Origin: a virus
Lineage: Duplodnaviria; Caudoviricetes
Length of the DNA: 64,000 nucleotides
Reading direction: 5' to 3' (one strand)
IMG/VR virus record: IMGVR_UViG_3300031555_003626
Location: 169,330 to 233,329 of that record
Below, in pieces: positions 21,482 to 21,618 of this stretch. A program made the position numbers and the translations under genes. How positions within the stretch are numbered: the first letter of the stretch is position 1; every line of letters starts with the position of its first letter. The notes below the pieces were generated by a model. It ran no database searches. It was not told the DNA's origin and saw only the letters and a program-made list of their open reading frames with translations.

Positions 21482-21618
21482 TGAGCTATGGTGTAAAGGT
21501 AGCACAACAGACTTTCGTGGATTAGCATAAGTAATGCACTACATGGTTATAATAGTTCAAGTCTATTATTCACGGCCAGACTCTGTTGGTTTTGGTTCGA
21601 ATCCAGATAGCTCAGCCA
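21482..21618 (+). tRNA. tRNA-Gln(UUG) interrupted by nested 63-nt mini-tRNA (21516-21578)
   Basis: Removing the insert restores ACAGA-CTTT|GAC-TCTGT; U1:A72 and G73 fit Gln. Confidence 0.8.

Follow-up and report, generated by a model that had tools for sequence, protein, structure and literature searches.

The only tRNA-Gln(UUG) gene of a large bacterial virus is split within its anticodon, between positions 35 and 36, by a 63-nt insert that is itself shaped like a tRNA. We consider it probable that this insert is a mobile tRNA-mimic intron, cut out by the host nucleases that process the 5′ and 3′ ends of tRNAs and sealed by a phage ligase. With slightly less assurance, we place it in a distinct class of tRNA intron, separate from the group I, group II and EndA-type introns, whose sole signal would be its likeness to a tRNA; host RNase P and a 3′-end endonuclease would excise it, and a phage RNA ligase would join the exons. 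As shown by comparison among related phage genes, the inner fold is under selection, and the exons are intact and unduplicated.

The window, the whole 64,000-nucleotide stretch of DNA analysed here, is the end of a virus record of 233,329 bases (37% GC, standard code). Near relatives of the phage were found in animal faeces and the bovine gut. An alternative genetic code is unsupported for the phage genome (G000), in which the codons AAA, TTA and CAA occur 38.6, 16.4 and 12.9 times per thousand, respectively. The tRNA cluster of the window extends from about 19700 to 27550, and CCA is encoded in 13 of 13 tRNA genes of the phage.

The insert in tRNA-Gln(UUG) and its host gene

The gene and its insert consist of the following elements (positions in the window).

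21482-21618, + strand: tRNA-Gln(UUG), the sole such gene of the phage, split within the anticodon by the 63-nt insert at 35/36
21482-21515, + strand: 5′ exon, with the acceptor 5′ strand, D arm, anticodon stem 5′ strand and C32 U33 U34 U35; compared with L154 as part of the joined exons
21516-21578, + strand: tRNA-shaped insert, 63 nt, candidate intron, from its own base 1 to G73-CCA
21516-21522, + strand: insert acceptor 5′ strand CGTGGAT, pairing 7/7 with ATTCACG at 21568-21574
21525-21537, + strand: insert D arm GCAT-AAGTA-ATGC, 4 bp, with a 5-nt loop lacking GG
21538-21550, + strand: insert linker, 13 nt, unpaired, in place of the anticodon and variable arms
21551-21567, + strand: insert T arm AATAG-TTCAAGT-CTATT, 5 bp, loop TTCAAGT
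21568-21578, + strand: insert acceptor 3′ strand, discriminator G and CCA; 3′ boundary
21579-21618, + strand: 3′ exon, with G36 A37 C38, the anticodon stem 3′ strand, T arm, acceptor and G73-CCA

The first-pass annotation had described a nested mini-tRNA at this site, and its arms, their sequences and the terminal G-CCA are exactly as given there. U8 and A9 lie between the acceptor 5′ strand and the D arm, and the element possesses the 7-bp acceptor, T arm and N-CCA end of a functional tRNA. The name mini-tRNA suits its shape but not its function, because an element with neither an anticodon arm nor a D-loop GG cannot decode. ARAGORN makes no tRNA call on the inner element, and Rfam matches the whole of 21482-21615 as one tRNA (50.3 bits). 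The four features of the insert occurred together in none of 2,000,000 shuffles of its sequence, and the product of their single frequencies is 3.4e-10. Thermodynamic folding alone fails to single out the cloverleaf (z = -1.5 for the insert), and in the precursor the pair probabilities are 0.9 for the inner T stem and 0.07-0.26 for the inner acceptor. The inner fold is supported by the covariation described below, not by folding energy. At the junction of exons and insert, a 7-bp stem would adjoin an internal loop of 4 x 7.

Exact removal of the insert yields a 5-bp anticodon stem with CTTTGAC as its loop, a product that only one register gives, and the joined exons form a tRNA with U1-A72 and G73. 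Alleles with and without the insert both exist. At 67 of 74 positions the joined exons agree with L154, a phage tRNA-Gln gene that carries no insert; the differences are compensatory (pair 3:70 and the T stem) or confined to loops, and the anticodon loop of L154 also reads CTTTGAC. In a sister phage (G003), the same slot, before the same trailer, is occupied by an intact Gln(UUG) gene.

Shifting the boundaries by one base would turn the host gene into tRNA-Glu(UUC) with an intron at 36/37, and ARAGORN, run with introns allowed, reports just this, Glu(ttc) i(36,63). We find this assignment scarcely credible. U1-A72 and G73 are Gln features, an intact Glu(UUC) gene is already present at 25671, and the empty allele L154 carries the Gln loop. 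In addition, nine distinct inserts of other phages use the Gln 35/36 site, and an insert that runs from base 1 to CCA is obtained in the Gln register only.

Related inserts and their ends

Two further genes of the cluster are split by inserts of the same kind.

20257-20411, + strand: tRNA-Leu(UAA), split at 34/35 by a 68-nt insert (20292-20359)
22118-22316, + strand: tRNA-Lys(UUU), split at 35/36 by a 123-nt insert (22153-22275)

The Leu insert has the same build as the Gln insert, as the first-pass annotation had proposed. Further loci were gathered through a neighbouring protein, DNA patterns and whole tRNA clusters; a strict filter retained 30 distinct CCA-ended inserts, and a filter admitting any tail retained 40. 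These filters themselves selected in part for pairing of the acceptor and of the exons. The host genes are those for Gln, Leu, Lys, Ile, Thr, Gly, Asp, Glu and Asn, and the insertion sites are 32/33, 34/35, 35/36 and 36/37; inserts at 32/33, which is outside the anticodon proper, occur at L038:2239-2303 and L219:4325-4382. Lengths across the class range from 47 to 123 nt, and the Gln insert is among the smallest.

The T stem, which was no criterion in the strict set, pairs 5/5 in all 30 inserts, and the middle of these inserts varies from 15 to 86 nt. A paired acceptor and T stem around a variable middle is the pattern read by RNase P and RNase Z. In a ten-row alignment, 99.4% of the cells are paired and 13 of 16 pairs have compensatory changes on both sides, a result reached in 0 of 500 shuffles; slid controls were 40-52% paired. 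These changes mostly uphold the earlier proposal that structure rather than sequence appears conserved, but the inserts have sequence ancestry in common as well. The closest matches of the Gln insert are a Leu(CAA) insert, identical at 46 of 65 positions, and a Gln 35/36 insert lying in different exons of another phage, identical at 45 of 65, against a shuffle background with a mean of 0.48 and a maximum of 0.60.

Several further likenesses link inserts of different hosts. The D arm of the Gln insert recurs verbatim in Lys, Asn and Leu inserts that were fetched with that arm as the pattern. The Lys insert of the window is 71-72% like Gln and Leu inserts elsewhere. Near-identical inserts reside in different tRNA genes, as in related phages whose Leu(UAA) and Lys(UUU) inserts are identical at 76 of 78 positions and whose exons are only 55% alike. 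By this distribution of sequences, the class is shown to be mobile between tRNA genes. No target-site duplication was found at the inserts. An exact 20-mer of the Gln insert occurs in no other viral contig, nothing in the GenBank phage collection covers it, and a pattern for the Gln site (one site and one size range) gave 43 matches in 185,579 prokaryote genomes, with no nested insert. Some insert-bearing phages are apparently TAG-recoded (L392-L402 of G024 and L447-L457 of G011); in G024, coding density rises from 0.46 to 0.77 under table 15 and a CUA tRNA is present.

A census that made no assumption about boundaries found the tRNA-shaped type in 21 of 27 interrupted genes; the other six comprise three non-tRNA-like inserts of 194-219 nt, one member of the tRNA-shaped class at site 32/33 and two misjoins. 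The long inserts, 194 or 219 nt in length, are in anticodon loops in the same phage groups (L020:5095-5365, L064:1825-2095 and, on the minus strand, the Leu(UAA) gene of L389) and are possibly group I introns. Group I introns do occupy tRNA anticodon loops of phages and bacteria (PMC3984707), and the tRNA-shaped inserts share with them their location, their mobility and the occupancy of Leu(UAA)-type sites. Together with the long non-tRNA-like inserts in Lys and Leu genes of related phages, this might suggest that the Gln insert is a self-splicing mini-ribozyme or the remnant of a group I intron. Such an origin is very unlikely. Group I introns have a P3-P7 catalytic core, are usually >200 nt and carry a terminal G at the 3′ splice site, whereas the 63-nt insert is far below the size of such a core, ends in A and finds no intron family in Rfam at E values up to 5. 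Across the class, the inserts are 47-123 nt long, have no ribozyme core, occur at many different sites and are tRNA-shaped, every conserved feature being a tRNA feature.

The ends of the inserts follow a simple rule. Among the 40 inserts, the tail is 4 nt in 35 (34 N-CCA and one N-CCG) and 1 nt, the discriminator only, in four; one is doubtful, and tails of 2, 5, 6 or 7 nt are absent. Inserts that end at the discriminator occur at L251:7266-7319, L284:418-471 and L391:7649-7695, the last only 47 nt long. Those in L251 and L284 are Asn inserts that carry the D arm of the Gln insert, and the neighbouring tRNA genes encode CCA in 0 of 8 cases in each. G022 and G023 are exceptions, with a CCA-less Gln host that holds a CCA insert and a CCA-encoding Lys host that holds a CCA-less one. 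The boundaries coincide with the two ends made by tRNA 3′ processing, N or N-CCA, and the geometry fits that of a substrate cut by RNase P at base 1 and by RNase Z after the tail. The match between the tails and the CCA habit of each genome, which comes from one lineage and is mixed in G022 and G023, agrees better with continued cutting along the usual processing route than with a mature tRNA that was copied and then frozen.

The inserts might also never be removed. The inner RNA would then be a stable tRNA mimic, serving as a decoy for anticodon nucleases or as cargo like the neighbouring Y-RNA-like RNAs, or the insertion would be an inert relic; there would be no working outer tRNA, and the host tRNA-Gln would be used. 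This possibility builds on the abundance of odd tRNA-like RNAs, GOLLD and YrlA-like elements in the cluster and on selection of the inner stems that would act irrespective of the fate of the exons. Phage tRNAs are, moreover, generally dispensable. We nevertheless judge it unlikely given the state of the exons and the lack of intact twins. Compensatory changes preserve all exon stems in eight Leu hosts and eight Gln hosts (a partly filtered set), and the exons of the Gln gene are also intact when set against the independent empty allele L154. The genome has no intact gene for the Gln(UUG), Leu(UAA) or Lys(UUU) anticodons, and none of the 21 interrupted genes has an intact twin of the same anticodon in its locus, several loci being partial. 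In a model built from ten short inserts, the three inserts alone score above the ordinary tRNAs of the genome, and neither the genome nor the strong model hits in 14 genomes include a free-standing copy of the Gln insert. Weaker hits considered as such copies were ordinary tRNAs and were rejected.

A candidate route of excision and ligation

Three phage genes encode proteins that could act on RNA ends.

16457-17383, + strand: polynucleotide-kinase-domain (PNK) protein, 308 aa, RNA end healing, upstream of the tRNA cluster
G000:C1:131816-132991, outside the window: T4 Rnl1-type ligase
About C1:143412-144041, outside the window: Rnl2-type ligase

Searches of the phage genome detected no RtcB, RNase Z-like protein, CCA-adding enzyme or reverse transcriptase, and RtcB is absent from six other insert-bearing genomes as well. 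A second PF09414 match in G000 is weak, looks like a DNA ligase and was rejected as an RNA ligase.

In the splicing route that we favour, the insert would be a mobile intron of small size that resembles a tRNA's top half. Within the precursor it would fold as an acceptor stem and T arm inside the anticodon loop, a fold backed by covariation. Host RNase P would cut at base 1 of the insert and, since this enzyme leaves 3′-OH and 5′-phosphate ends, a 3′-OH would remain on the 5′ exon. An endonuclease acting on tRNA 3′ ends would cut immediately after the CCA of the insert and leave a 5′-phosphate on the 3′ exon, consistent with the ends produced by RNase Z (PMC7479834). The exons, held together by the pairing of their acceptor and anticodon stems, would be joined by the ATP-dependent Rnl1-type ligase, the gene of which is present in the phage; Rnl1 joins 3′-OH to 5′-phosphate ends (PMC1920235), and its predicted product would be mature tRNA-Gln(UUG). 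Most simply, the insert would be a tolerated selfish element riding on the tRNA-repair kit of the phage. It probably originated from a processed tRNA that was ligated into a broken anticodon loop and then copied into DNA; its later movement between tRNA genes is shown by the distribution of the inserts.

The 3′ cut is the weakest step because CCA inhibits the Bacillus-type RNase Z, and precursors that contain CCA are commonly trimmed by exonucleases (PMC7479834). Such trimming would destroy the 3′ exon and counts against the proposed route. Precise cutting after CCA has been reported for the Thermotoga RNase Z and for some RNase E cuts only (PMC7479834).

A different cutter would sidestep this problem. 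A phage or host endonuclease, or an anticodon nuclease, could recognise the inner tRNA shape and leave cyclic-phosphate as well as 5′-OH termini for PNK to heal and Rnl1 to seal, as in T4 tRNA repair. The PNK gene is located just upstream of the cluster, T4 Rnl1 does seal healed tRNA halves (PMC1920235), and the insertion sites follow a pyrimidine, often as Y|A or Y|G. The base at -1 is a pyrimidine in 13 of 13 site classes (p about 0.005-0.015, the classes being partly dependent). A pyrimidine at -1 is equally consistent with a preference of RNase P or with an origin at nuclease-prone steps. Cutting by another nuclease seems improbable to us. No candidate nuclease is common to G000, G011, G012 and G024, the junction has no bulge-helix-bulge, and G024 has no PNK homologue. 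By itself, such a nuclease would also leave unexplained why tails are N or N-CCA and why they track the CCA habit of the genome.

The distribution of ligases bears on both the favoured route and its variant with another cutter. An Rnl1 match was found in six of seven near-complete insert-bearing genomes. G024, which is complete and insert-bearing, has no detectable Rnl1 or PNK, the sole hit being a weak PF09414 match in a protein of 456 aa. Only 12 proteins are common to the phage and the distant insert-bearing G012, and the short Rnl1 (43% identity) is among them. BLAST finds no counterpart of this Rnl1 in three genomes that are free of inserts; two of these carry a longer protein with an Rnl1 domain. 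This pattern is suggestive of a link between the short Rnl1 and the inserts, and does not amount to a test. The mere presence of a ligase fails to discriminate insert-bearing phages, as insert-free phages carry RNA ligases too. No unannotated protein is common to all the insert-bearing genomes compared (G000, G011, G012 and G024).

Known systems and the surrounding cluster

The closest precedent is found in the Lak megaphages, whose tRNA introns were called 'enigmatic', with the remark that one 'may encode a tRNA' and with no mechanism given (Devoto et al. 2019, PMC6784885, Fig. 4, Table S6). The remark was repeated for recoded jumbo phages in a 2026 survey (PMC13037316). Neither paper states a boundary rule or proposes excision by tRNA processing. 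The Lak introns resemble the present insert in being tRNA-like, in interrupting the anticodon loop of tRNAs of large gut phages in some alleles only and in belonging to phages that encode a T4-type RNA ligase. They differ in their ends. By inspection of Table S6, the Lak introns in Thr, Gly, Phe and Tyr genes open with roughly 30-35 nt of leader sequence, followed by the tRNA-like part, and lack a terminal CCA, whereas the present insert contains nothing beyond the tRNA mimic, from base 1 to CCA. Because of this leader and the lack of CCA, the element described here is best regarded as a variant of that unexplained kind, not as a plain member.

T4 tRNA repair, in which PrrC makes the break, Pnkp heals the ends and Rnl1 seals them, shares with the phage the ligase family, the PNK domain, the break in the anticodon loop and tRNA-Lys(UUU) among the affected tRNAs. 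However, T4 mends a single nick in a host tRNA, whereas the removal of an encoded segment requires two cuts, and the ends proposed here would need no healing. The archaeal and eukaryal introns removed by EndA or TSEN, with RtcB or Trl1, are likewise short, placed in the anticodon loop and protein-dependent, as is proposed for the insert. In contrast to these introns, the insert is off the canonical 37/38 site, has no bulge-helix-bulge and belongs to a bacterial virus in which no RtcB was detected, and its recognition signal appears to be its own tRNA shape. In mitochondrial tRNA punctuation, t-elements and the MALAT1 mascRNA, RNase P and RNase Z make two precise cuts at places set by a tRNA-like element, and the flanks are released separately; here, the flanks would be religated into one tRNA. 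A literature search, which had most subscription journals outside its reach, found no paper on a mechanism for nested or tRNA-like tRNA introns that involves RNase P or a ligase, and no demonstration of the proposed splicing route for any tRNA.

If the insert is spliced as proposed, it would represent tRNA splicing without a ribozyme or a dedicated splicing endonuclease, and the phage tRNA introns noted in 2019 would become a directly testable reaction, for which the 63-nt insert is a convenient substrate. Phage Rnl1 would gain a role beyond the repair of cuts made by host defences, split phage tRNAs would depend on the phage repair kit, and an enzyme that cuts exactly after CCA would be expected in gut bacteria. 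Standard annotation misses or misassigns the split genes, here calling the Gln gene Glu and the Lys gene Gln. Consequently, the phage tRNA inventories used in arguments about codons and anti-defence are incomplete.

The cluster and its surroundings contain several other unusual elements. Three YrlA (Y RNA)-like elements with circularly permuted tRNA-like cargo, below the Rfam cut-off, lie at 19716-20129, directly downstream of a gene for a TerD-like protein (668 aa, 17608-19614), and a GOLLD RNA above the cut-off is within the cluster at 26165-26678. A tRNA-like gene at 20140-20247, also present in the relative L027, has an anticodon arm that is clean and reads UCA (UGA-reading), together with a hairpin of about 30 nt in its D loop; the genome shows no sign of TGA recoding. 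The sequence at 21037-21138 is tRNA-like; it has two T-loop motifs and lacks a clear anticodon arm. At 22532-22694, a tRNA-Tyr(GUA)-like gene has a variable arm expanded to about 100 nt and is accompanied by an ordinary Tyr(GUA) gene at 24349. A weak RAGATH-33 match lies at 22713-22823. A free-standing HNH endonuclease gene within the cluster (24742-25218) ends in the start of tRNA-Leu(UAG).

Beyond the cluster, a glycyl radical enzyme resembling pyruvate formate-lyase is encoded at 51358-53586, pointing to an anaerobic host. The DNA polymerase A gene at 58700-63084 consists of three pieces separated by a GIY-YIG/NUMOD endonuclease and is probably split by introns. The last 7,392 bases of the record (56609-64000 of the window) are identical to G000:C1:7445-14836, so that the end of the record is a repeat or an assembly overlap.
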